From Candidatus Limnocylindrales bacterium (GTDB lineage: Bacteria > Chloroflexota > Limnocylindria > Limnocylindrales > CSP1-4), in assembly GCA_035688935.1 (NCBI GenBank), contig DASSMI010000035.1, positions 1 to 43,278 on the forward strand: a stretch of 43,278 bases of DNA, in the 5' to 3' direction. The notes below the pieces were generated by a model. It worked only from the letters and a program-made list of their open reading frames with translations, was not told where the DNA came from and did no database searches. Position 1 is the first letter of the stretch. Each line of letters begins with the position of its first letter. This document shows, in pieces, positions 1,852-43,096 of this stretch. The position numbers and the translations under genes are program-made.

Positions 1852-3207
1852 TCAGAGACGGAGGAGGAGCTTGGCGATCTCGAAGTAGATGATCAGGCCC
1901 GTCCCGTCGACGAGGGTCGTGATCAGCGGCGCGGAGACGACCGCCGGATCGATCCGCAGCCGGCGCAGAACGAGCGGCAGGACGGCGGCGACGATCGCGG
2001 ACCAGACGCAGATCGCCAGGATCGTCACCCCGACGACGAGCGGGACGTTCGATGGGACGCCGAGCAGCTCCGCCCGACCGATCGCGACGACGGCCATGAC
2101 GACGCCGATGACGAGTCCGACCCGCAGCTCCTTCCAGACGACCCAGCCGACGTCGCGCAACGACACCTCGTTGAGGGCCATGGCGCGGACGATCAGGGTG
2201 ACCGTCTGGCTGCCGATGTTGCCGCCGGTGCCGATGAGGAGGGGAATGAAGAAGCTGAGCGTCACCGCCGCCTCCAGCTCGTCCGAGAACGCGCGCAGGA
2301 CCGAGCCGGTGTAGGCCTCGGCGACGAAGAGGAGGAGCAGCCAGCCCACGCGCTTGCGGACGAGCAACGGGACGCTCGACAGCCGGTACGGGACGTTGAG
2401 TGGCTGCGACCCGCCGAGGCGCTCGATGTCCTCGGTCGCCTCCGCCTCGAGCACGTCCGCGACGTCGTCCTGGGTGATGATCCCCAGGAGGTGGTCGTCG
2501 TCGTCCACGACCGGGATCGCGAGGAGGTTGCGCTCGGTCAGGAGGTTGGCGGCCGTCTCGCGGTCGGCCGACGCCCGGACGCGGACCGTCGTCGGGGCGA
2601 TCAGCTCGGTCACCGGGGTCGCGCCCGGGCTGAGCAACAGCCGGTACAGCGAGAGGACGCCGATGAGGTGCCGCTCGGGGTCGACGACGTAGACGTAGTC
2701 GACCGTCTCGGCCTCGCCGACGAGCCCGCGGATCGCCGCGATCGCGCCATCGGCCGTCGCGTCGGAGGCGACCGCGACGAAGTCCGGCGTCATGATCCCG
2801 CCGGCAGAGTCGGGCTCGAACGCCGACAGCGCCCGGATCTCGGCCGCCTCGTCGGGCGGCATCCGGACGAGGATCTGGCTGACCTCGGGCTCGGTCAGCT
2901 CCTCGACAACGTCCGCGGCATCGTCCGGGTCCATGCCGGCGAGCAGGGTCGCGGCCTCCTGCCGGCTCAGCGTTCGGAGGATCGCCGCCGCCTCGTGCGG
3001 GTCGAGCTCCTCGAGGAGCTCGGGGACCTCCTCGTCCGGCAGCCACTGGAGGAGGACGGCGACCTCGCTCGGGTCGAGCCGCGGGACGAGAGCGGCCCAC
3101 TCGGACGGCCCGACCCGCTCGGCGAGACCGGCGACGCCGTCCTGCTCACGCTCGCGGATGAGCTCCTGGATCTCCTCGAGGAGGGCGTCGGTCGCGACGG
3201 ACGGCAT
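1852..3207 (-). CDS. mgtE: Magnesium transporter MgtE
   Basis: 451-aa ORF with the MgtE N-domain (acidic helical repeats LDPSEVAVLLQWLPDEE...). A CBS pair follows (IMTPDFVAVASDAT..., LLAIPVVDDDDHLLGIITQDDV). The C-terminal MgtE membrane domain carries IPLLIGTGGNIGSQ and ITTLVDGTGLIIYF. Confidence 0.93.
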   Translation of the reverse strand: MPSVATDALLEEIQELIREREQDGVAGLAERVGPSEWAALVPRLDPSEVAVLLQWLPDEEVPELLEELDPHEAAAILRTLSRQEAATLLAGMDPDDAADVVEELTEPEVSQILVRMPPDEAAEIRALSAFEPDSAGGIMTPDFVAVASDATADGAIAAIRGLVGEAETVDYVYVVDPERHLIGVLSLYRLLLSPGATPVTELIAPTTVRVRASADRETAANLLTERNLLAIPVVDDDDHLLGIITQDDVADVLEAEATEDIERLGGSQPLNVPYRLSSVPLLVRKRVGWLLLLFVAEAYTGSVLRAFSDELEAAVTLSFFIPLLIGTGGNIGSQTVTLIVRAMALNEVSLRDVGWVVWKELRVGLVIGVVMAVVAIGRAELLGVPSNVPLVVGVTILAICVWSAIVAAVLPLVLRRLRIDPAVVSAPLITTLVDGTGLIIYFEIAKLLLRL

Positions 3208-3260
3208 GGCACGGCTCCGGACGGTGATGTGGAGCGCCTGGGCGGACGCCTGGGAGCGGC

Positions 3261-3300
3261 CGGTACGACGGATGCCCGCGGTCGCGGCGGCATCGTACCG
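3261..3300 (-). terminator. Imperfect GC-rich hairpin in the 136-nt tadG-mgtE spacer (possible U-tract-less terminator or 5'-leader structure)
   Basis: CGGTACGA(cgga)TGCC - 12-nt loop - GGCA TCGTACCG, giving 8 + 4 bp with a 4-nt bulge. There is no T-run on either strand. Function is not established. Confidence 0.25.
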
Positions 3301-3343
3301 CCCGCCGGATCGCGACGCCCCGCCCGTCGACGGCGCGCGCGGC

Positions 3344-4777
3344 CTACTTGATCAGCCCGTAGTCCGGCGGCTTGGCGAACTTCTGGTTGTTGTAGAAGAA
3401 GTGGAAGCTCGAGTTGCCCTGGATCTGCAGGTCCCAGCAGATGAACTGCAGCGTGAGGTCCGTGCCGCCGCCCGAGCCGCCCGAGCCGCCGGTCATGTAG
3501 ACGAGGGCGCCCGGCGCGTACACGGTGCCGCTGATGTTCACGTTGCCGCCGCCGCTGAGGTTGACCTGCGGCTGTGCGTACGTGCTCGACACCGTCGGCG
3601 ACACGCTCTGCCAGAGCAGGAGGTTGTCGTAGTCCGGGAAGTTGAGGCCCGTTCCGTCGTAGGAGTGGTTGTACGGCCGGAGCTTCAACGTCGCGCCGGC
3701 GCCGACGGTGACCTGGCCCATCGCGCCCGAGCCGCTCGCGGTGCCCGTGTTGTAGAAGAGGATGCCGCAGGTCGCTTCGGGGCAGTCCGTCGCCCAGTTC
3801 GCGTCGGTCGTCGAGGTCACCCCGGACGCGACGGAGTAGACGGCGTTCTGCGCGCCGATGTCGAACCCGCCGCCCTGCATGACGTAGATGCCCGGGCGGA
3901 GGTAGGCCTTCACGCTGTTCTTCAGCTGGATTCCGCCCTGGTAGATCCCCGGATCCAGGACCTGGTCGGCGCCGCCGAACACCTGGCGCGTCGTCGCGCG
4001 GACCGGCAGGCTCGACGGCATCGGCGTGAGGCCCGCCAGCGGATCCTTGACGTAGGGCTGGCCGGTCAGCGGGGTCGGCGAGATCGTGAGCGCCGCCGGC
4101 GCATACCCGCCGACGATCTTGAACGTGGCGCCGTTGTTCAGCGTGATCGACGCCGAGTTGCCGTTCGTCGCGAGGCCGCCGCCGTTCGCCGCGGTGCACG
4201 ACGAGTCGATCATCACGGAGCCCTCGAGGATGATCGTCGGGCCGCCCGAGATCAGGCCCGCGGGGCAGCCTCGGCGGCCGTTCGGCCAGCTCGTGTTGCC
4301 GTTGTCCAGGAGGAGGACCGAGTACGGCGGCGGAAGGACGGGCCCGTTCACGGCCTGGCTCGTCGTCCTGACGTCGAACCCGCGGATCCCGACCGCGCCG
4401 CCGAAGAAGGACGGCGAGTGCCCGGCGACGTCGACCTGGACGACGTAGTTGTTCCAGCCGTCCGGGCACGAGACCGTGATCGCGCTCGCCGGCGTCCCCG
4501 GGATCGCCGCCTGGACGGCCGCGATCGCGGCCGCGCTGACCGCGGCACGCGGGCTTCCCGGGGGCGGCCCGGCGGTGGCCGAGCAGCCCTTGAGGCTCTG
4601 GACCAGGTTCGCGGCCTGGAGCGCGGCGGTGTCCGATGCGTTCTGCTGGACCCGCCGCTGGACGAGCGCCTGGGCGCCGTCGAACAGGAGCGAGGCCATC
4701 GCGAAGATCGCGGCAAGCGACAGGACGAACAGGACGATGATCTGGCCACGCTCGGCGCGGCGCGTCGAGACGCCCAT
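3344..4777 (-). CDS. tadG: TadG-like pseudopilin / Flp-pilus assembly protein
   Basis: 477-aa ORF. The N-terminus RGQIIVLFVLSLAAIFAMASLLFDGAQALVQRRVQQNASDTAAL is the TadE/G-type N-terminal helix. The remainder is Gly/Thr/Asn-rich and beta-rich. ATG 4777-4775 shares one nt with the stop of the upstream tadE-like gene (TGATG). Confidence 0.75.
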   Translation of the reverse strand: MGVSTRRAERGQIIVLFVLSLAAIFAMASLLFDGAQALVQRRVQQNASDTAALQAANLVQSLKGCSATAGPPPGSPRAAVSAAAIAAVQAAIPGTPASAITVSCPDGWNNYVVQVDVAGHSPSFFGGAVGIRGFDVRTTSQAVNGPVLPPPYSVLLLDNGNTSWPNGRRGCPAGLISGGPTIILEGSVMIDSSCTAANGGGLATNGNSASITLNNGATFKIVGGYAPAALTISPTPLTGQPYVKDPLAGLTPMPSSLPVRATTRQVFGGADQVLDPGIYQGGIQLKNSVKAYLRPGIYVMQGGGFDIGAQNAVYSVASGVTSTTDANWATDCPEATCGILFYNTGTASGSGAMGQVTVGAGATLKLRPYNHSYDGTGLNFPDYDNLLLWQSVSPTVSSTYAQPQVNLSGGGNVNISGTVYAPGALVYMTGGSGGSGGGTDLTLQFICWDLQIQGNSSFHFFYNNQKFAKPPDYGLIK

Positions 4778-5277
4778 CAGTGGTTCACCACCATCGTGGT
4801 CGTCGTACTGATCCCGAAGCCGCCCAGGCCGAGGATCGACGACGTGAAGAGGTTGATCCGGCTAGTGACGCCGATCGTGATCGGCGTGCCGCGGGCGTTC
4901 GTGGCCCCGGTCGTGTCGGTGTCGCCGCTGCAGCCGGCGCCGTAGCAGACCGTGACCGCCAGGCTCGTGCCGCCGGCCGCAGCCGCGGCCGTGACCGCAT
5001 CCCGGATGGACTGCTTCGACGGCGACGGATAGGGGCAGTCGGTCGAGACCGCGGGGATGTTGGCCGTGTCCGCGGGCGGCCCCACGGGGCACGCCGTCGT
5101 CGCCGACCCGCCATGGACGATCGCGTAGCGACCGGCTTCGCGGGCCGCGGAGGCGAGGCTGTTCTGGGCCCAGATCGCCCGGCCCACGTCGATGACCGCC
5201 ATCAGCATGACGAGGAAGACGGGGAGGACGAGCGAGAACTCGACCAGCGCCTGGCCGCGCGTTCGACGACGTCGCAT
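4777..5277 (-). CDS. tadE: TadE-like protein
   Basis: 166-aa ORF. MRRRRTRGQALVEFSLVLPVFLVMLMAVIDVGRAIW is the canonical TadE N-terminal motif. Confidence 0.8.
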   Translation of the reverse strand: MRRRRTRGQALVEFSLVLPVFLVMLMAVIDVGRAIWAQNSLASAAREAGRYAIVHGGSATTACPVGPPADTANIPAVSTDCPYPSPSKQSIRDAVTAAAAAGGTSLAVTVCYGAGCSGDTDTTGATNARGTPITIGVTSRINLFTSSILGLGGFGISTTTTMVVNH

Positions 5278-6405: not shown

Positions 6406-8048
6406 CGTGACGCCTCCGGATCGTCGTCGGGGATCACGCCCATCGCGTCGAGGACCGGGCGGGCGCTCCGGATCGGCGGCAGATCGTGGAAGTTGCCCGG
6501 CTCCGGCGGCGACGTGGCCCACCACTCGAGCGTACCGCCGCCCCACGGGTTCGGCGGCTGGTCGGGCACTCGGCGGAGGGCCGCGGCGACCGCCACGAGG
6601 AACGGGATCGTCCCGAGACCGAGGAGGACCGCGCCCACGGTCGACGCGATGTTGAGATCGGTCCAGCCCGCGGCCGACGAGTAGTCGGCGATGCGCCGCG
6701 GCATCCCGAGCAGCCCCAGCTGGTACTGGGGCAGGAACGTCAGCGTGAACCCGACGACCCACAGGGCGAAGTGGACCCGGCCCAGGCCCTCCGACAGCCG
6801 CCGCCCGGTCATCTTGGGGAACCAGTAGTACATCCCCGCGAAGATCGCGAAGACCGACCCGCCGATGAGCGTGTTGTGGAAGTGGGCCACGACGAAGTAC
6901 GTGTCCTGGAGCTGGTAGTCGAGCGGCGGCGACGCGACGATGATCCCGGTGATCCCGCCGAGCAGGAACAGGTAGAGGAAGCCGATCGCCCACAGCATCG
7001 GCGTCTCGAACGTGAGGTGGCCGCGCCACATCGTCCCGATCCAGTTGAAGAACTTCACCCCCGTCGGCACGGCGATCGCGAACGAGGCGATCGAGAAGAA
7101 CGGATTGCTCACCGCACCGGTCGTGAACATGTGGTGGGCCCAGACCGACATCGAGAGGCTCGCGATCGCGATCGTCGCGAAGACGAACGCGCTGTAGCCG
7201 AAGACCGGCTTCCGGCTGAAGACCGAGACGATCTCGGTGATCACCCCGAAGAACGGCAGGATCAGGATGTAGACCTCGGGGTGGCCGAAGAACCAGAAGA
7301 GGTGCTGCCAGAGGATCGCCGAGCCGCCCATCTGGGGCTCGAAGATGGCGCCGCCGAGGTGGCGGTCGATGAAGAGCATCGCGAGGGCTGCCGTCAGGGG
7401 CGGGAACGCGAACAGGATCAGCAGGCCCGTCACGAGGATGTTCCACGTGAAGATCGGCATCCGGAACAGCGTCATTCCAGGCGCCCGCTTGCCGTAGACG
7501 GTCGCCACGAAGTTGATCGCGCCGAGCACGGTCGAGATGCCGGTCAGGAGCAGGCCGACGATCCACAGGTCGACGCCGACGCCGGGCTCGTACGTCGGCC
7601 CGCTCAGCGGCGCGTAGCCGGTCCAGCCGATCGCCGCAGGCCCACCGCCCACGAGGAAGCTGCTCATCACGATGAGCGCGCCGGTCAGGAACACCCAGAA
7701 CGACAGGGCGTTGAGCCGCGGGAAGGCCATGTCGTCGGCGCCGATCTGGAGCGGCATGATCACGTTCCCGAGACCCACGGCCATCGGCGTGCCGAAGAGC
7801 AGCAGCATGATCGTGCCGTGCATCGTGAACAGCTGGTCGTAGCCCTGCTCGCCGACGATCTGGAGCCCTGGGGCCGCGAGCTCGGTCCGCATGACCTCGG
7901 CCATGAGGCCGCCGACGAGGAAGAACGCGAACGCCGAGGTGACGTACAGGATCCCGATGCGCTTGTGATCCACCGTCGTCAGCCACCCGGTCAGGCCGGG
8001 CAGCTCGAGCGGGTGATGGACGGCGACCGGGGTCGTTCGCGTCGTCAT
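6402..8048 (-). CDS. ctaD: Cytochrome c oxidase (aa3-type) subunit I
   Basis: 548 aa from [12 protein letters not shown]... Heme-copper oxidase motifs are present: [41 protein letters not shown] 8048-8046 overlaps the ctaC stop (ATGA). The longer track ORF (to 8762) is an Arg-rich artefact. Confidence 0.95.
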
Positions 8049-8830
8049 GGCGCGGCGCTCGACGCCGCGGAGCTCGACGGGGCGGAGCTCGCCGCGGCCG
8101 AGCCCTTCGGCTGGCTCGCGACCCACGCGTCGAACTCGGCCCGGGAAACGGCCCGCACGCTCAGCAGCATCCGGTCGTGGAACACGCCGCAGAACTCCGC
8201 GCACTGGCCGCGATACGTGGCGGCTTCGCGGATCGTGACGTCGAACGCGTTGACCTGGCCGGGGATCGCGTCGCGCTTGAACAGGAACTGCGGCACGTAG
8301 AAGGAGTGGGCCACGTCGGCGGAGGTCAGGACGATGTGGATCGGCTCGCCGACCGGCACGACCATCTCGGCCGGCGTGTCCGGGCCACCCTCGACGGTCA
8401 CGCCGAGCTCGGGGTAGACGAAGCGCCACTGCCAGCGGTACGCGGTGACCTCGACGGTGACGCCGCCGGCGCCGCGCGCGTCGATCCGTCCGAGCGCCCC
8501 GAGCGTCAGCCAGAACAGGACCGCGACGATCGCGATCGGGATGAGCGTCCAGGCGATCTCCAGTCGCGTGGAGCCGTGGAGCTGCGGCGGCTGCGGGGCG
8601 GCGCCGTCGGGGCCCGCCACGGCGGACCGGCGACCGTATCGGACGATCGACACGGTGATCAGGAGCCAGACCGCTCCGCCGACCACCGCGGCGGCGATGA
8701 GGAACTGCGCCCACAGGTCGCGAACCGCGACGGCCTGGTCCGTCACGGGCGCGGGCATGCACCCGGCCGCGGCGAGGCCGAGGGCTGCGGTGGTCGCGAC
8801 GAGACCGGTTCGACGGCCGTGACGGATCAC
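8045..8830 (-). CDS. ctaC: Cytochrome c oxidase subunit II (CuA), lipoprotein-type signal
   Basis: 261 aa from [24 protein letters not shown] (lipobox LAAAGC). There are two TM helices. CuA ligands are HSFYVP...[15 protein letters not shown] 8830-8828 overlaps the qcrB stop (GTGA). Confidence 0.92.
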
Positions 8831-26202: not shown

Positions 26203-28175
26203 AACCCCTCCACCATGAACGCGTCGCCCAGCTCGGCCAGGGAGAAGACCGGCCCGTCACGACAGACGAAGAAGGGACCGAGCTGGCAGTGGCCACACGT
26301 GCCGACCCCGCAGGCCATGTTCCTCTCGAGGGTCACCCACGTCCGATCCCGCGCGACGCCCAGGCGCTCCAGCGCGGCGGCCGTCGCTCGCATCATCCGC
26401 TCCGGGCCGCAGACGAACGCCGTCACCCGGCTGCCGTCCCACGCCGCCTGATCGAAGAGCTGGGTGACCACGCCGATCCGCCCGAGCCAGTCGCCGCCGG
26501 CGCGATCCACGATCTCGGCGATCTCCAGGTCGGCCCGACCGCCGAGCGCCGACAGCTCGTCGACGAAGAGCCGGTCGGCGGGGCTCCGCGCTCCCAGGTA
26601 CAGCCGCACGGCGCCGAACCGCGGTCGCTCGGCGAGGATCGAATCGAGGACCGGCCGGAGCGGCGCGAGACCGATCCCGCCCGCGACGATCACGACGTCG
26701 CGACCGCGCGCGGTCGAGATCGGCCAGCCGCGGCCGAGCGGGCCCCGGACGGCGACCTCGGTGCCGAGCGGGAGGTCGATCAGGCGAGCCGTCGCGGGGC
26801 CCGCCGCGCGGATCGTGAGCTCGAGGCCGTCGGGCCGGATCCGCGAGATGGAGATGGGCGGAGCCGCGAAGGCCGGCTGCTCGACGAGGACGAACTGGCC
26901 GGGCGCCGCGGCGAGGATCGCCGGGTCGGTGATCGCGAGGCCGATCGTCGCCGTGTCCGCCGTTTCGCGCGCGAACGAGCGGATCCGGGCGATCGCTCGC
27001 ACCGGGGGCGGCGTGGTCCCGATCTCGGGCGCCCGCCCCGACCCGGGCGACGCGGGCCACGGCGGTGGTCCGCTGGGCAGCCCGATCGGGGCGACCGCCG
27101 CGAGCTCCTCCCGCACGTCGATCGCGACCGGGCACCACGCGATGCAGCGCCCGCATCCCACGCAGCCGCTCATCCCGAACTGGTCCCACCAGGTCGCGAA
27201 CTTGTGCGTCATCCATTGCCGGTAGCGGTCGGCGACCGCGGGCCGGAAGCTCGCGTCGCCGGCGACGCGGGCGAATCCCGAGCTGAAGCAGCTGTCCCAC
27301 CGCCGCTCGGTCGTTCCCTCGATCCCGTCGAGGTCCGAGGCCACCGCCACGCTCGTGCAGAAGCAGGTTGGGCAGACGAGCGTGCAGTTGGCGCAGGCGA
27401 GGCAGCGGTCCGCGATCGCCGCCCAGCGCGGCGAGTCGAGGGCGTTCCGGAGCCGGTCGGGCAGGCCCTCGGCCGCGACCGGATCACCGATCGCCTCACG
27501 GACGGCGCGGACCTGGGCGGCCGCCGCAGCCGTCTCGGCCTCGGTCGCCGGACGAAGGTCCAGCGCCTCGACGATCGAGGCACCGGCCGCGCTGCCCGAC
27601 CGGACGAGGAACCCACCGGCGATCTCGGCCATCGCGATGTCGGCGCCGTCGCTGACCTCCGGACCGGCCTCCATCGACGTGCAGAAGCAGGTGTCCGTGG
27701 CCCGCGCGCATTCGACCGCGACGATCAGGCTCGCGGCGCGGCGGGCGACGTGGTCGGCATCGCCCAACGGTCCCGCCCGCATGACGCGCTCCTGGATCCG
27801 CAGCGCCGCGATCTCGCAGGCACGGACGCCGACGAACGCGAGGCGGGGCGGGGACCCGGCGGCCGCTTCGACGCGAAGCGAGTCGTCCTCGCGCCGGAAC
27901 CGCGCCCCCGGCACGGCCGGTGGGTGGGTGAACCGCTTCCAGGCGGTCACGCCGAGGCCATAGTCGAATGCCCGCGCCGGATCGCCATCACCGAGTCGAA
28001 CGCGGCCGGGCGCGGATTCGACCACGCGGCCCCACGGCAGATCCGCCGCTCCGTCGAGCTCCTCGTAGACGATCGCACCGTCACCAACGGTCGGGCCGAT
28101 GATCCGTCGCCCGTCTGCGGCGAGCGCGTCGAAGAGCGTGTCGAGCTCCGCGACGGGCAGGAAGCGATCGGTCAT
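26199..28175 (-). CDS. Fused hydrogenase beta-gamma subunit (AsrA-like 4Fe-4S domain + AsrB/FNR-like FAD/NAD(P)/2Fe-2S domain)
   Basis: 658 aa from MTDRFLPVAELD... The N-terminal half has CLACANCTLVCPTCFC and CVGCGRCIAWCP. A Pro-rich linker follows (GLPSGPPPWPASPGSGRAPEIGTTPPP). The C-terminal half has PPISISR, VIVAGGIGLAPL and CGVGTCGHCQLGPFFVCRDGPVF. ATG 28175 overlaps the stop of the cNMP gene (ATGA). Confidence 0.88.
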   Translation of the reverse strand: MTDRFLPVAELDTLFDALAADGRRIIGPTVGDGAIVYEELDGAADLPWGRVVESAPGRVRLGDGDPARAFDYGLGVTAWKRFTHPPAVPGARFRREDDSLRVEAAAGSPPRLAFVGVRACEIAALRIQERVMRAGPLGDADHVARRAASLIVAVECARATDTCFCTSMEAGPEVSDGADIAMAEIAGGFLVRSGSAAGASIVEALDLRPATEAETAAAAAQVRAVREAIGDPVAAEGLPDRLRNALDSPRWAAIADRCLACANCTLVCPTCFCTSVAVASDLDGIEGTTERRWDSCFSSGFARVAGDASFRPAVADRYRQWMTHKFATWWDQFGMSGCVGCGRCIAWCPVAIDVREELAAVAPIGLPSGPPPWPASPGSGRAPEIGTTPPPVRAIARIRSFARETADTATIGLAITDPAILAAAPGQFVLVEQPAFAAPPISISRIRPDGLELTIRAAGPATARLIDLPLGTEVAVRGPLGRGWPISTARGRDVVIVAGGIGLAPLRPVLDSILAERPRFGAVRLYLGARSPADRLFVDELSALGGRADLEIAEIVDRAGGDWLGRIGVVTQLFDQAAWDGSRVTAFVCGPERMMRATAAALERLGVARDRTWVTLERNMACGVGTCGHCQLGPFFVCRDGPVFSLAELGDAFMVEGL

Positions 28176-38575: not shown

Positions 38576-38650
38576 TGGCTGGCGAGGAAGGATTCGAACC
38601 TTCGATCTCCTGATCCAGAGTCAGGCGCCTTACCGCTTGGCCACTCGCCA
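38576..38650 (-). tRNA. tRNA-Gln (anticodon CTG), CCA encoded
   Basis: The minus strand reads TGGCGAG TG GCCA AGCGGTA AGGC G CCTGA CTCTGGA TCAGG AGATC GAAGG TTCGAAT CCTTC CTCGCCA G CCA. It has a full cloverleaf, U1-A72, G73, T33 and anticodon CTG. Confidence 0.93.
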
Positions 38651-38665
38651 GTGGTCGAAGCCCCC

Positions 38666-39145
38666 GTGCGGGCTCGACCCTCCGAGTCTAGCGCCGGCCG
38701 GCCGTCCACCCCGCGGATCCCGGCGTCGCACCGCGACCTCGTCGAGTGCCCGCCGGTCGCCGCACTGACGACCATCGGCGCCGATGGCTACCCGCAGACG
38801 TCGGTCGTGTGGTGCGACGCGGAAGACGACATCGTGCGGATCAACACGATGCGCGGGTTCGCGAAGGAGCGGAACCTCCGGCGAGATCCACGGGTGACGC
38901 TCCTCTGCTACGACCCGCGGCGGCCGCTCCGCTCGCTCGAGATCCGGGGCACGGTGGTCGAGATGACGGAGCGCGCAGCCGGGGCGCACCTCGACGCGCT
39001 CGCCTCGAAGTATGCCGGCCGCCCGATCCGCTACTTCGGCGACTGCATCCCCGCCCGCTTCGCCGAGACCGAGACGCCGATCCTCTGCCGGATCCGGCCC
39101 GACCGTGTCGTGGTCCTCGATGCCGAGCGGGGTACGGCGCGATGA
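38666..39145 (+). CDS. PPOX-class (pyridoxamine 5'-phosphate oxidase fold) probable F420-dependent enzyme, copy 1
   Basis: 159 aa from GTG 38666 (GTG 38651 is an alternative): ...IPASHRDLVECPPVAALTTIGADGYPQTSVVWCDAEDDIVRINTMRGFAKERNLRRDPRVTLL...LEIRGTVVEMTE. The track ORF's upstream part is antisense to the tRNA and was rejected. Confidence 0.8.
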   Translation: MRARPSESSAGRPSTPRIPASHRDLVECPPVAALTTIGADGYPQTSVVWCDAEDDIVRINTMRGFAKERNLRRDPRVTLLCYDPRRPLRSLEIRGTVVEMTERAAGAHLDALASKYAGRPIRYFGDCIPARFAETETPILCRIRPDRVVVLDAERGTAR

Positions 39146-39588
39146 GCACCGTCGCTGCGCCGACGACCACGCCGGCCATCCCCGACTCGCACCGCGACCT
39201 CCTCACGCGACCGGTCTGCGGGGTCCTCACGACGATGGGCCCCGACGGCGTGCCGCAATCGAGCCTCGTCTGGGTCGATCTCGACGGTGACTGCCCGCTC
39301 GTGAACACGACGCTCGAGCGGCAGAAGGGCCGCAACCTCCTGCGGAATGCCAAGGTGAGCCTGCTCGTCGTCGATCCCGAGAACACCGCGCGGTATCTCC
39401 AGGTCCGCGGCGACGCCGAGCTCGTGACGCGAGGGGCCGAGGCGCACGTCGATCGGCTCACCCGCCGGTACACCGCTCACTCCCGCTTCTACGGTCACGT
39501 CCACCCCATCGAGCAACGGGCCCGTGAGACCCGGGTGATCGTCCGGATCCAGCCGCGGCGGGTGACGCTCGACGCCATCCACGCCTGA
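39142..39588 (+). CDS. PPOX-class probable F420-dependent enzyme, copy 2 (paralogue of the preceding gene)
   Basis: 148 aa from ATG 39142, which overlaps the preceding stop (ATGA): MSTVAAPTTTPAIPDSHRDLLTRPVCGVLTTMGPDGVPQSSLVWVDLDGDCPLVNTTLERQKGRNLLRNAKVSLLVVDPENTARYLQVRGDAEL. Confidence 0.85.
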   Translation: MSTVAAPTTTPAIPDSHRDLLTRPVCGVLTTMGPDGVPQSSLVWVDLDGDCPLVNTTLERQKGRNLLRNAKVSLLVVDPENTARYLQVRGDAELVTRGAEAHVDRLTRRYTAHSRFYGHVHPIEQRARETRVIVRIQPRRVTLDAIHA

Positions 39589-39614
39589 CCGCGCGACCGG
39601 GCGGCGCCCCAGGG

Positions 39615-39643
39615 TTGGTCGACGGGAGCGCGGGCGGTAGAAT
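39615..39643 (+). promoter_or_regulatory. Sigma-70-type promoter candidate for tRNA-Gln/glnS
   Basis: TTGGTC (39615-39620), a 17-nt spacer, then TAGAAT (39638-39643). The mature tRNA 5' end lies 13 nt downstream of the -10 hexamer. Confidence 0.55.
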
Positions 39644-39655
39644 GCGCGCGGCCGC

Positions 39656-39730
39656 TGGCGCGTGGCTCAACGGTAGAGCACCTGACTCTGGATCAGGGGG
39701 TTCCAGGTTCGAATCCTGGCGCGCCAGCCA
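39656..39730 (+). tRNA. tRNA-Gln (anticodon CTG), CCA encoded, second and divergent copy
   Basis: TGGCGCG TG GCTC AACGGTA GAGC A CCTGA CTCTGGA TCAGG GGGTT CCAGG TTCGAAT CCTGG CGCGCCA G CCA. It has a full cloverleaf, U1-A72 and G73. It ends 27 nt before the glnS ATG. Confidence 0.93.
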
Positions 39731-39757
39731 ACTCCCCTCGAGTGTGGTGCGCCCCCG

Positions 39758-41449
39758 ATGCCCGATCCCACCTTCCCCGCCGGCGCCGAGCCCGAGCGTC
39801 GCGACTTCCTCCGCGAGATCGTCGCGGCGGACCTCGCCGCGGGCCGGGTCGCCGCCCCGGTCACCCGCTTCCCGCCCGAGCCGAACGGCTACCTCCACAT
39901 CGGCCACGCGAAGTCGATCTGCCTGAACTTCGGGATCGCGGCGGAGTTCGGCGGGCACTGCAACCTCCGGTTCGACGACACGAACCCGGAGAAGGAGGAA
40001 CAGGAGTACCTCGAGGCGATCGAGGCCGACGTGCGCTGGCTCGGCTTCGACTGGGGCGACAACCTCTTCCATGCCTCGGACTACTTCGAGCAGCTCTACG
40101 ACTGGGCGCTCGTCCTGATCGACCGCGGTCTCGCGTTCGTCGACGACCAGTCGGCGGACGAGATCCGCGAGACGCGCGGCACGCTGACCGCGCCCGGCAC
40201 GAACTCGCCGTGGCGCGGCCGCTCGGTCGCGGAGAACCGCGACCTGTTCGAGCGGATGCGGGCGGGCGAGTTCCCGAACGGCGCCCGGGTCCTCCGGGCG
40301 AAGATCGACATGAGCTCGCCGAACCCGAACCTGCGCGACCCCGTCCTGTACCGGATCGTCCACGCGCGCCATCCGCGGACCGGCGACGACTGGTGCATCT
40401 ACCCGACCTACGACTTCGCCCACGGCCAGTCCGATGCGATCGAGGGCGTCACGCATTCGCTGTGCACGCTCGAATTCGACGTCCATCGCCCGCTCTACGA
40501 CTGGCTGATCGAGCACCTGCCGGTGCCGCACGTGCCGCACCAGTACGAGTTCGCCCGACTGAACCTCACCCACACGGTGCTGTCGAAGCGGGTCCTGAAG
40601 CGGCTCGTCGACGAAGGCCATGTCCGTGGCTGGGACGATCCGCGGATGCCCACGATCAGCGGCCTGCGCCGGCGCGGCGTGCCGGCCGAGGGCATCCGCG
40701 ACTTCGCGGCGATGATCGGCGTCGCCCGGACCGACTCGACGATCGAGATCGGCCAGTTCGAGTACGCCGTCCGGGCCGTCCTGAACCGCATCGCCCAGCG
40801 GCGGTTCGGCGTCCTCGACCCGCTCCGCGTCGTCATCACGAACTGGCCGATCGACGCGATCGAGCAGATGGACGTCGTGAACAACCCCGAGGACCCGACG
40901 GCCGGGACCCGCGCGGTCGCCTTCGGGCGCGAGCTCTTCATCGAGCGTGACGACTTCGCCGAGGACCCGCCGCCGAAGTTCTTCCGGCTCGCGCCCGGCC
41001 GCGAGGTCCGCCTGCGGAACGCGTATTTCGTGACGTGCGAGGAGGTCGTCAAGGACGGCGCCGGCCGGATCGTGGAGCTGCGCTGCACCTACGACCCGGC
41101 CACCCGGGGCGGTGATGCGCCCGATGGCCGCCGGCCCAAGGCGACGCTCCACTGGGTATCGGCCGCGGATGCCGTCCCCGCCGAGGTCCGTCTGTACGAC
41201 CACCTCTTCAGCCGACCGGACCCTGGCGCGGACGGCGACCTCTTCGCCGACCTGAACCCGGCGTCGGAGAGGATCGTCCGGGGCGCGATGCTCGAGCCGT
41301 CGCTCGCCGGCGCCCAACCCGGCGAGACCGTCCAGTTCGAACGACTCGGCTACTTCACGCCGGATCCGGACTCGCGGCCGGACGCGCTCGTCTTCAATCG
41401 GACGTTGACGCTCAAGGATACGTGGGCGAAGGTCCAGGGACGAAGCTGA
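39758..41449 (+). CDS. glnS: Glutaminyl-tRNA synthetase
   Basis: 563-aa ORF. Motifs are [17 protein letters not shown] (HIGH), [41 protein letters not shown] and LTHTVLSKR (the KMSKS-equivalent of GlnRS). A C-terminal beta-barrel anticodon-binding region follows. Confidence 0.95.
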
Positions 41450-41509
41450 TTCCCAACTGAGACACGAGAGCGGTCGTCGCCGCGCCTGGGTCTGTTACCC
41501 TCCGCCGTC

Positions 41510-43096
41510 GTGAGCCATCCGCCCGAGGGTGGTGCGGTCGTCACGCCGCGCCGGTGGAGCCGTCACCTCCACGCGTTCCTCGATTCGCTGTTCCCCGGTC
41601 TCGGCCACCTCGTGGCCGGACGGCGTCGCCGCGCGGCGCTCTTCGGGCTCCCGACGATCGGGTTCTTCCTGATCCTGGTGCTCGGGCTCGTTCTCGTCCC
41701 GACCGCGACGCTGATCGGCGTGGTCGTGGATCCGGCGACCGTGGTCGTCCTGTTCGGGCTCCAGGCGTTGCTGCTCGTCTGGCGAGCGGCGGCGGTTGGG
41801 TCGAGCCTCACGAACGGGCGGTTCCCGCGGTTGGGCCGTCGCGATGCCGTCCCGATCGCCCTCATCGCCATCGTCCTGATCGTCCCCCACGTCTACGGCG
41901 GCGTCCTGACGGAGGCCGCTCGCGAGTCGGCGGACGAGGTCTTCGACCCGACGACGGCGGGCGCGTGGCAACCGCCGGGTGGCGGGGCGACGCCCGAGCC
42001 GGATCCGTCGATCGCGCTTCCGTCCGGCCCGCTGCCGAGCGACTCACCCGAGCCGTCGGCGACGCCGCACGAACCCCGCCAGAACGTGCTCCTGATCGGG
42101 GTCGACTCGGGGATCGGCCGGAACACGTTCCTGACCGACACGATGATCATCGTCTCGCTCGACCCGGTCACCGAGACGGTGTCGATGGTCTCGATCCCGC
42201 GCGACATGGTGGACGTGCCGCTGCCTGACGGGCGCACGTTCAGCGGCAAGATCAACGGCCTGGTCTCGTTCGCCCGGCATCACCAGGGGACGTTCCCGGG
42301 CTCCAACGGTCAGGGCTACGACGTCCTCATGGGCGCCCTCGGCACGCTGACCGGCCTGAAGATCGATCACTACGCCCAGGTCGACCTGGGCGGGTTCGTG
42401 CGGGTCATCGACACGCTCGGCGGGATCGACGTGAACGTCGAGGACTCGTTCTGCGACCCCACCTACGACGAGTACGGCTTCACCCACGGCTTCGGGATCA
42501 CGGCCGGTCGCCACCACCTGAATGGCTACCAGGCGCTCGCCTACGCGCGGGTCCGGAAGGCGTCCGGCGAGAGCGACTTCACCCGCGCGGCACGGCAGCA
42601 GGAGATCCTCTCCGGGATCCGTGACCGCGTGAAGGCCGGCGGCTTCCTCAACGACCCGATCGGCCTCGTGCAGGCGCTCGGCAAGACCGTCTCGACGAAC
42701 ATCCCGCGCTCCATGGTCGCCCCGCTCGCGGACGTCGCGACGCGGGTGGGCCGCAAGCAGACCTACCGGGCGGTGATCACCCACCCGCTCGTGAGCTCGG
42801 GCTACGACAGCCGCGGCTCGATCCAGATCCCGAACGTGGCCGGCATCCGGAAGCTGGTTCGCGTCCTCTTCCCGGTCGACGGCTCGCGGCCGCCGGCCAA
42901 GTACCTCGCGTCGACCGGGTCGGGCAAGGCGAGCGGCTCCGGCGTCTCGCAGTGCGGCCCGGTCGCGACGCCGCGACCGACCGCGACGCCGAAGCCCACC
43001 CCCAGGCCCACGCCGAAGCCCAGCGCGACGCCGTCCCCGTCGCCCGAGCCGACGCCGTCCCCGGAGCCGTCGGTCGAGGCCAGCCCCTCGACCTAG
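41510..43096 (+). CDS. LCP (LytR-CpsA-Psr) family cell-envelope phosphotransferase with N-terminal TM region and C-terminal Pro/Thr-rich tail
   Basis: 528-aa ORF with a GTG start. It has 3-4 N-terminal TM helices. The LCP core is NVLLIGVDSG...TDTMIIVSLDP...VSIPRDMVDVPL...LNGYQALAYARVRK...DFTRAARQQ. The tail is PRPTATPKPTPRPTPKPSATPSPSPEPTPSPEPS. Confidence 0.9.
   Translation: MSHPPEGGAVVTPRRWSRHLHAFLDSLFPGLGHLVAGRRRRAALFGLPTIGFFLILVLGLVLVPTATLIGVVVDPATVVVLFGLQALLLVWRAAAVGSSLTNGRFPRLGRRDAVPIALIAIVLIVPHVYGGVLTEAARESADEVFDPTTAGAWQPPGGGATPEPDPSIALPSGPLPSDSPEPSATPHEPRQNVLLIGVDSGIGRNTFLTDTMIIVSLDPVTETVSMVSIPRDMVDVPLPDGRTFSGKINGLVSFARHHQGTFPGSNGQGYDVLMGALGTLTGLKIDHYAQVDLGGFVRVIDTLGGIDVNVEDSFCDPTYDEYGFTHGFGITAGRHHLNGYQALAYARVRKASGESDFTRAARQQEILSGIRDRVKAGGFLNDPIGLVQALGKTVSTNIPRSMVAPLADVATRVGRKQTYRAVITHPLVSSGYDSRGSIQIPNVAGIRKLVRVLFPVDGSRPPAKYLASTGSGKASGSGVSQCGPVATPRPTATPKPTPRPTPKPSATPSPSPEPTPSPEPSVEASPST

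Follow-up and report, generated by a model that had tools for sequence, protein, structure and literature searches.

Gln-tRNA is formed in bacteria either directly, by a glutaminyl-tRNA synthetase (GlnRS, encoded by glnS), or indirectly, by a glutamyl-tRNA synthetase (GluRS) of the non-discriminating kind together with GatCAB, an amidotransferase. Both Deinococcus radiodurans and Thermus thermophilus possess a bacterial GlnRS as well as GatCAB, and there GatCAB is required for Asn-tRNA. In Helicobacter pylori and Acidithiobacillus ferrooxidans two enzymes, GluRS1 and GluRS2, divide the Glx tRNAs between them. In the pylS-pylT system the genes of synthetase and tRNA are adjacent and are gained and lost together; pylT reads a stop codon and is necessarily orthogonal. 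According to a survey of 2014, genes for both routes to Gln-tRNA were not known from any bacterium (PMC4206432), and the patchy occurrence of GlnRS, its transfer among bacteria and its loss are already known (PMC3927822). Here we analysed a stretch of 43,278 nucleotides from 'Candidatus Limnocylindrales bacterium' (contig DASSMI010000035.1, assembly GCA_035688935.1; called the window below), in which glnS is preceded by a tRNA-Gln(CUG) gene, the linked tRNA, and a second tRNA-Gln(CUG) gene, the distal tRNA, lies nearby in inverted orientation. We show that glnS and the linked tRNA are a co-inherited unit. Both routes to Gln-tRNA probably coexist in this bacterium, which looks like an organism halfway from one route to the other.

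The locus resembles the situation in D. radiodurans and T. thermophilus in the combination of a bacterial GlnRS with a GatCAB that is needed for Asn-tRNA, in the best NCBIfam model of the enzyme, which is the Deinococcus-type NF011291, and in the C32-A38 and G37 anticodon loop that T. thermophilus tRNA-Gln also has (PMC3927822). Both reference organisms have an asparaginyl-tRNA synthetase (AsnRS), whereas none was found here in 43 genomes of the genus. Their GatCAB is held to serve Asn-tRNA only, whereas glnS-free congeners of our organism indicate that the same set of GluRS and GatCAB can make Gln-tRNA. The GlnRS described here lacks a YqeY tail, and in the parts of the literature covered no dedicated tRNA gene next to glnS was found described for the two species. 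The second enzyme of H. pylori and A. ferrooxidans is GluRS2, whereas here it is a true GlnRS with a presumed partition of the tRNAs. With pylS-pylT our locus shares the adjacent genes and their joint gain and loss, but it concerns the ordinary codon CAG, which is already read by a native tRNA, and orthogonality is only conjectural.

A D stem of three or four base pairs has been proposed as the feature that divides the tRNAs between two such enzymes (PMC2777447, citing Salazar et al. 2003), yet in H. pylori the D stem was found not to be a major identity element after all (PMC2777447). Dasgupta and Basu (2014; PMC3927822) had one GlnRS of Chloroflexi (Anaerolinea) in their survey, suggest that a lone GlnRS may be non-functional and, in the passages covered, describe no such pairing of glnS with a tRNA; in contrast, the glnS described here is under purifying selection, occurs family-wide and has a tRNA isodecoder of its own. 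We found nothing in the literature on a glnS-linked tRNA-Gln isodecoder with a remodelled core, on a presence/absence polymorphism of such a unit among congeners, or on the synthetases of Limnocylindria. The isodecoder and the polymorphism are apparently new, while the joint occurrence of GlnRS and GatCAB is known.

A tRNA-Gln isodecoder inherited together with glnS

The window belongs to a metagenome-assembled genome (MAG, G000) of 2.89 Mb in 324 contigs, with 72% GC and a completeness of 72%. glnS (39758..41449, + strand) is intact and encodes 563 aa. Its ATG follows the 3' end of the linked tRNA (39656..39730, + strand) after 27 nt; the distal tRNA is located at 38576..38650 on the - strand. 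ARAGORN called both tRNAs, which match Rfam RF00005 (gathering score 29 bits) with 69.9 and 70.1 bits, respectively. This agrees with a preliminary description made from the sequence alone, which had placed the two tRNAs in inverted orientation on either side of a pair of PPOX genes, one of them 27 nt upstream of glnS.

We searched for the linked tRNA with a specific 24-mer, allowing up to two mismatches, in the 43 genomes of the genus (g1) and in a fixed draw of 251 genomes of the class, each at least 80% complete. Unpublished genomes, all of them glnS-negative, add to the denominators only, namely G010 in the genus and G120, G148, G173, G183, G207, G263, G283, G288 and G292 in the class; none of our conclusions depends solely on them, and their sequences are not quoted. 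Within the genus, 11 of 43 genomes contain the 24-mer: all eight glnS-positive ones, in which the tRNA is intact, and three of the 35 without glnS (G042, G005 and G012), and in these three the linked tRNA exists only as a 5' half of 42-46 nt that ends at the end of the anticodon stem. Within the class draw, the linked type is found in 25 genomes (19 of family f1 and six of genus g38 in family f4), all 25 of which carry glnS, and in none of the 194 glnS-negative genomes. A variant with U13-A22 (GGCCTAACGGTA[A/T]GGC) stands beside glnS in genera g4, g6 and g7, in 23 genomes that are again all glnS-positive. With both variants considered, a tRNA-Gln(CUG) with a pyrimidine at position 13 is present in 49 of 57 glnS-positive genomes, against 0 of 194 glnS-negative ones. 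The linked tRNA usually lies 50-110 nt from glnS, and it is kept together with the gene at separations of 1.7 to 35 kb as well (G204, G150, G187, G227). Moreover, it is identical at 75 of 75 positions in genera g1, g3, g5, g8, g10, g22 and in g38 of f4, with synonymous divergence (dS) in glnS of 0.43-0.81 between genomes whose linked tRNAs are identical. Our data show that the linked tRNA is under strong constraint and that it forms a co-inherited unit with glnS.

The D arm of the distal tRNA (GGCCAAGCGGTAAGGC and close variants) was found in 32 of the 43 genus genomes, independent of glnS, and throughout the class (58/82 in f1, 12/12 in f2, 47/61 in f3 and 80/94 in f4). Since its presence does not depend on glnS, the distal tRNA represents the native type, as had been supposed.

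The 5' halves in the three glnS-negative congeners (G042:C253, locus L111, about 8035-8080; G005:C5, L112, about 8271-8314; G012:C6, L113, 8039-8082) sit among ordinary metabolic genes. Neither an integrase nor flank homology to glnS loci was found beside them. They look like remnants of a former presence. Because the halves break alike, integrase-mediated insertion into the tRNA was considered; it was discarded, as no integrase or repeats were seen nearby (with no search for repeats beyond the tRNAs). Deletion of glnS by recombination between the two tRNAs was likewise rejected, since no clean chimera of a linked 5' part and a distal 3' part replaces glnS in glnS-negative genomes. In G013, ARAGORN reports a tRNA-Pro(CGG) (L023, 15631-15705, - strand) that looks instead like a chimera in decay, mismatched at 6:67; its 5' half is linked-like and its 3' half identical to the native type, which hints at recombination between the two tRNA genes.

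About 75 nt upstream of glnS, at the place occupied by the linked tRNA in other genomes, three further loci (G227, L151 4507-4580, - strand; G150, L153 5168-5239, + strand; L033 2227-2299, + strand) have a tRNA-Gln-like element with anticodon CUG and G33; its D loop is devoid of the usual GG, and position 3 is A or G. It is called by ARAGORN and falls below the Rfam tRNA threshold, and may represent either a tRNA in decay or a leader of glnS that has the shape of a tRNA. In G150, the detached linked tRNA is followed some 270 nt downstream by a c-di-GMP-II riboswitch (RF03169, 63 bits; L153 1278-1363, + strand).

Comparison of the two tRNAs

The preliminary description had estimated some 15 differences in 75 positions, mostly compensatory. 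We counted exactly 15 and found all of them coupled: seven pairs and nucleotide 46, which stacks on 13:22. From distal to linked tRNA, pair 6:67 changes from A-U to C-G, 12:23 from C-G to U-A, 13:22 from A.A to C-G, 15:48 from G:C to A:U, 26:44 from G.A to A.G, 49:65 from G-C to C-G and 50:64 from A-U to C-G, while nucleotide 46 changes from A to G. The D arms read GCCAAGCGGTAAGGC in the distal and GCTCAACGGTAGAGC in the linked tRNA, as quoted before, so that the D stem has three base pairs in the former (A13.A22) and four in the latter (C13-G22). Both CUG tRNAs have U1-A72, G2-C71, G3-C70 and G73, which had been noticed earlier, as well as G10, the whole anticodon arm and the T loop in common. 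The E. coli identity set of U1-A72, G2-C71, G3-C70, G10, G73 and the anticodon YUG is thus present in both. The linked tRNA therefore has a rebuilt tertiary core (13:22:46, 15:48, 26:44 and 12:23) and has kept the E. coli GlnRS identity elements.

The anticodon loop of both CUG tRNAs has C32, G37 and A38 and not U32, A37 and U38 of the E. coli set. According to PMC3927822, such a loop is of the T. thermophilus type and functional with the GlnRS of that organism, and G2-C71, G3-C70 and G10 are conserved in genomes with GlnRS. Bacterial GatCAB has been shown to recognise U1-A72 and the D loop and to reject an extra D-loop base (PMC2811023). All three tRNA-Gln genes of the MAG, including the UUG species described below, have these determinants, with U1-A72 and no additional base in the D loop; in the tRNA-Glu genes the first pair is G1-C72 and the D loops are longer.

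The linked tRNA was earlier suspected to be a foreign import. However, its anticodon arm is identical to that of the native tRNA, the two share six of seven acceptor pairs, and its acceptor stem and A26 are those of the native tRNA in the sister family f2, whereas L042, the locus of the nearest outgroup GlnRS, has a clearly different tRNA-Gln next to the gene. These features indicate that the linked tRNA originated within the Limnocylindrales lineage as a derivative of the native tRNA-Gln(CUG), and that it did not arrive together with a foreign glnS.

The glnS product and its history

As described earlier, the enzyme is a canonical GlnRS. It matches TIGR00440 end to end (positions 3-524 of 524) with 700.3 bits against a cut-off of 425.8, and its translation contains HIGH, VLSKR (similar to KMSKS) and LRFDDTNP. 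The model NF011291 is matched at positions 11-559 of 769 only, with the protein ending at 563 aa, and a C-terminal YqeY tail is absent. The ratio of non-synonymous to synonymous divergence (dN/dS) against relatives is 0.13-0.31, which indicates that glnS is under purifying selection and hence in use; that its product charges tRNA-Gln is predicted from the sequence.

In several MAGs of few contigs, probably from long reads, glnS is broken by frame shifts or TGA (G017:C2:440-2000; G116:C1:754126-755702; G268:C1:50066-50875; G277:C21:138998-140572; G209:C5:64425-65099). In G017, the tRNA beside the broken glnS also has an extra homopolymer A, so that a sequencing error is as likely there as true decay.

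The preliminary description had read actinobacterial hallmarks from the sequence. This assignment was not borne out: the NCBI taxonomy places Limnocylindrales within Chloroflexota (class Limnocylindria), and the closest GlnRS loci in named records (76-88% identity) are labelled Chloroflexota, 'Candidatus Limnocylindrales' and 'uncultured Chloroflexia'. That GlnRS is a minority trait does hold for this phylum, with glnS in 52 of 301 genomes of the Chloroflexota sample. It goes by family there (20/20 in f11, and zero in most families). In the class draw, we found glnS in 49 of 82 genomes of f1, in none of the two sister families f2 (0/12) and f3 (0/61), and in 7/94 of f4, all seven belonging to g38. 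The gene is thus patchy. Individual genera of f1 have it in most or all genomes (g4 8/8, g6 9/10, g10 3/3, g17 4/4); in g1 it was detected in 8/43 genomes, or in 1/5 when only genomes at least 90% complete are counted. Assembly gaps do not fully explain the absence of glnS: G015 and G049 have an assembled stretch from the native tRNA to the LCP gene that holds other genes, and no glnS remnant was found in it. Soil and rhizosphere metagenomes of several studies contain the stretch.

In the GlnRS tree, the sequences of Limnocylindria form one group (SH-aLRT 92). It is nested in a starred clade (99) to which sequences of Actinomycetota MAGs (Gaiellaceae, 'Coriobacteriia', BM5) also belong, followed by Alphaproteobacteria. 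The holders of the linked tRNA form one starred sub-clade (95), below which the U13-type sequences branch. The tree puts g38 within f1 and splits g1. We did not retain it as proof of transfer, as approximately unbiased (AU) tests reject neither the monophyly of g1 (p 0.43) nor f1 without g38. Transfer within the class is instead proposed on the basis of the distribution and the identical tRNA. In g38, the native tRNA-Gln has the acceptor stem UGGGGCG, and the tRNA adjacent to glnS is of the f1 linked type. Together with the confinement of glnS to this one genus of f4, this points to a transfer of the pair from f1, and the unit has probably reached one genus of another family.

The GlnRS of a record labelled Thermoleophilia, Actinomycetota (L046; JAXGZO010000001.1), nests in the Limnocylindria clade. 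Its glnS (3001-4644) is followed by a tRNA-Gln(CUG) (4714-4789) with the acceptor stem and anticodon arm of the native Limnocylindria tRNA. The pair may have been transferred between phyla, or else the bin may carry the wrong label.

The indirect route

The MAG contains gatA (C47:6898-8301, 570 bits), gatC (C47:8372-8647) and gatB (C232:4584-6011, 528 bits). The preliminary description had proposed to look for these genes as a sign of Gln transamidation. They are present, but they do not serve as sole evidence for it: AsnRS was found neither in G000 nor in any of the 43 genus genomes, GatCAB is then needed for Asn, and its presence alone is uninformative on glutamine. As 35 congeners have no GlnRS, their GluRS would have to accept tRNA-Gln. 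Species with and without the unit have the native tRNAs, GluRS and GatCAB in common.

The number of gltX copies had been raised as well. We found one true GluRS (C38, 456 bits), the nearest solved structure of which is that of the non-discriminating T. elongatus enzyme, 2CFO. A GluQRS-like paralogue of 342 aa (G000:C292:16506-17276; L009 1309-2337) recurs in several congeners; with 207-210 bits it does not reach the curated cut-offs of the GluQRS models. The residue of GluRS aligned with Gly365 of 2CFO (Gly366 in protein numbering), at a position that we take to be that of Arg358 in the discriminating T. thermophilus GluRS, is Arg in the motif QERLPTL. The same anticodon-domain motif is present in 31 genus enzymes with or without glnS, and we therefore dropped this signature as a marker of discrimination. 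The rule for Arg358 is moreover reported not to hold in every phylum (PMC3927822).

The third tRNA-Gln of the MAG is a UUG species on C91. It has U1-A72 and C3-G70, which places it outside the E. coli identity set, and its D stem is of the tRNA-Glu type (G10-C25, U11-A24, C12-G23, U13.G22), without the extra D-loop bases. A tRNA-Gln(UUG) with C3-G70 and a Glu-like D arm was found in 28 of the 43 genus genomes, both glnS-positive and glnS-negative. We found G3 in the UUG tRNA of seven genomes of g4 and of G121 (g10), G080 (g7) and G241 (g17), all of them glnS-positive; C70 opposite G3 was confirmed in G095 and G063. C3 was found in 27 glnS-negative genomes and in glnS-positive genomes of g1, g6, g3 and g38. 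Among the genomes examined, counted as genomes and not as independent events, 10 of 22 glnS-positive and 0 of 27 glnS-negative ones have G3, and G3-C70 is restricted to genera in which most or all sampled genomes carry glnS. This fits a requirement of GlnRS for G3-C70, in which case the UUG tRNA of G000 would still depend on GluRS and GatCAB.

Putative transcription signals and surroundings of the unit

A promoter-like element, TTGGTC-17 nt-TAGAAT (39615..39643, + strand), was read from the sequence and ends 12 nt upstream of the linked tRNA. Most relatives keep the -10 box at equal distance, either as TAGAAT or with one base changed. A consensus promoter scan called no promoter upstream of the linked tRNA, because the -35 box matches at only 3 of 6 positions. 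No terminator-like site was found between the linked tRNA and glnS. The spacer between them (39731..39757, + strand) contains a hairpin ACUCC...GGAGU followed by GUGGUGCG, which is kept wherever the tRNA precedes glnS (L023, L024, L117, L161, L162, L165, L166); the hairpin may be a processing site or a mask over the GGAG ribosome-binding site. In a soil RNA library, one contig matches 39656-39735 at every base and continues into the spacer of a relative, and another one covers the distal tRNA. As evidence for expression this is weak, since these are contigs and DNA carry-over is possible. Metatranscriptome contigs in general were not accepted as proof of a co-transcript, since most of them cover conserved GlnRS motifs of many organisms; stretches that they leave uncovered carry no information.

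The two tRNAs bracket two genes for PPOX-class F420-dependent oxidoreductases, both on the + strand and both matching PF01243. Paralogue 1 (38663..39145; TIGR03618, 90.8 bits) starts with GTG at either 38651 or 38663, and its stop overlaps the start of paralogue 2 (39142..39588; TIGR03618, 108 bits) in the sequence ATGA. In the loci of relatives examined, no homologue of paralogue 1 was found at the same site; the pair is cargo outside the glutamine system. Downstream of glnS follows a gene of the LCP (LytR-CpsA-Psr) family (41510..43096, + strand; TIGR00350, PF03816), which is outside the system as well and was used as a synteny marker of the flank. It borders the variable segment also in G015, G049, G054 and L032. 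The usual order in the family is tRNA, glnS and tRNA, all co-oriented, with a divergent LCP gene (G054, L032, G253, G086). In the window, the linked tRNA and glnS are inverted relative to this order (G054, L032), and the PPOX pair sits between the tRNAs.

When the segment from the native tRNA to the LCP gene (38651-41509 in the window) is compared with L114/G015, L115/G049 and L117/G054, its cargo differs per species. It may be the PPOX pair together with the cassette, a reversed cassette on its own, or a set of genes unrelated to these. This segment is a rearrangement hot spot beside a tRNA gene. Among the window's open reading frames from 34.5 to 43.1 kb no integrase or transposase was found; repeats beyond the tRNAs were not searched. 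Elsewhere in the window, ARAGORN reports a tRNA-Arg(CCG) of 94 nt (26597-26690, - strand) that has no Rfam tRNA match at the gathering score and is doubtful.

Discussion

Taken together, we consider it rather probable that glnS and its upstream tRNA are one unit of expression and inheritance, which is old and often lost, and that the two routes to Gln-tRNA operate side by side. A promoter with the conserved TAGAAT box would drive the linked tRNA, and the terminator-free spacer of 27 nt would carry transcription into glnS. RNase P and 3' processing would then free the tRNA and leave the glnS mRNA. GlnRS would serve the linked tRNA, with the native CUG tRNA as a probable second substrate, while a presumably non-discriminating GluRS and GatCAB would serve tRNA-Gln(UUG) and could serve the native CUG tRNA. 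Such redundancy of two routes may make glnS dispensable, and hence its loss frequent in the genus. We take glnS to have been acquired long ago, at the base of this family of soil Chloroflexota or close to it, and to have descended vertically since then, with many losses and occasional transfer; the direction of this history is inferred.

Several points weigh against this picture. The presence of GatCAB is accounted for by the absent AsnRS alone, and GluRS has Arg at the aligned position. The co-occurrence of tRNA and glnS may be pure physical linkage, given their usual distance, and the counts behind it (25/25 and 0/194) are phylogenetically non-independent. The assignment of tRNAs to charging enzymes is our inference. 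The D stem of 4 bp resembles that of tRNA-Glu, so that the linked tRNA might suit GluRS well; D-stem effects are system specific, and the length of the D stem as a GluRS discriminator has been both proposed and disputed (PMC2777447). In addition, f1 without g38 was not rejected (p 0.45), and with the MAG being 72% complete a gene or tRNA may have been missed.

An ordinary replacement, as in the Deinococcus/Thermus case, would mean that GlnRS makes all Gln-tRNA, that GluRS discriminates, that GatCAB acts for Asn only and that the second tRNA-Gln(CUG) is an extra copy for the dominant codon; in six window genes CAG is indeed used 62 times and CAA four times. GatCAB is required anyway where no AsnRS was found in 43 genomes, GlnRS and GatCAB commonly occur together where AsnRS is missing (in 98 of 547 genera; PMC4206432), and the Arg in GluRS as well as the GlnRS identity set on both CUG tRNAs would be expected. 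Yet 35 of the 43 congeners do without glnS and have the same GluRS motif and native tRNAs, and the repeated loss of glnS without visible change in GluRS argues for redundancy. The UUG tRNA also has no G3-C70 and a tRNA-Glu D stem, and G3-C70 is confined to genera that are mostly or wholly glnS-positive. We therefore hold a completed replacement to be unlikely. A recent lateral import of a foreign glnS with a foreign cognate tRNA, which had been suggested for the cassette, appears very improbable to us; the cassette itself has stood as a unit (25/25 against 0/194), its recent arrival in this genome has not. Patchiness within the genus (8/43), the variable cargo between tRNA and LCP gene, the inversion relative to G054 and L032, the position of the Limnocylindria GlnRS inside the clade with Actinomycetota, and g38 with an identical tRNA beside glnS and a different native acceptor stem would all suit an import. 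However, the GC content (0.70-0.71) and the GC content at third codon positions (0.94) of glnS equal those of the neighbouring genes, so that the proposed check of composition gave no sign of foreign origin, and neither integrase nor transposase is found nearby. The identity of congeners to the enzyme of G000 falls in the order G014 > G048, G017 > G013 > G054 for GlnRS, with a parallel ranking for GluRS. The matching composition, these parallel rankings, the unrejected monophyly of the genus and the tRNA remnants in three glnS-negative congeners fit better with an old presence and repeated loss, and the anticodon arm and acceptor pairs shared with the native tRNA, with a stem like that of the sister family, also speak against a foreign tRNA.

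The linked tRNA might further be an ordinary duplicate, chargeable by both routes, that hitch-hikes with glnS because one deletion removes the two. Its short distance from the gene would be expected in this case, as would fragments cut inside the tRNA in glnS-negative genomes, and both CUG tRNAs have U1-A72 and a D loop free of the extra base that GatCAB rejects (PMC2811023). We regard simple hitch-hiking as rather doubtful, since the tRNA stays with glnS at up to 35 kb, is perfectly conserved across genera and comes with two kinds of core (C13-G22 or U13-A22), both of them confined to genomes with glnS, and since the changes cluster in the core touched by GluRS and the GatB tail and leave the GlnRS contacts intact (PMC2777447; PMC2811023). 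A stricter form of coexistence can be put forward tentatively, namely two insulated channels for one codon, in which GlnRS would work with a remodelled tRNA that is not used by GluRS and GatCAB, and the indirect route with the native tRNAs. It is possible, though we would not expect it.

Coexistence of the two routes, with an old and often lost unit, bears on the old question of why GlnRS displaced the indirect route in some bacteria and not in most. Species of a single genus differ here only by the glnS-tRNA unit and have GluRS, GatCAB and the native tRNAs in common. They offer a natural series of stages, from acquisition through coexistence to loss or commitment, the last being represented by the compensated switch from C3-G70 to G3-C70 in the tRNA-Gln(UUG) of genera that are mostly or wholly glnS-positive. 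The unit is also a candidate for a natural synthetase-tRNA pair with its specificity in the tRNA core. If the two channels are indeed insulated, it would be a self-contained pair that can be added or dropped, and the bacterium would be an extant stage in the passage from transamidation to GlnRS.

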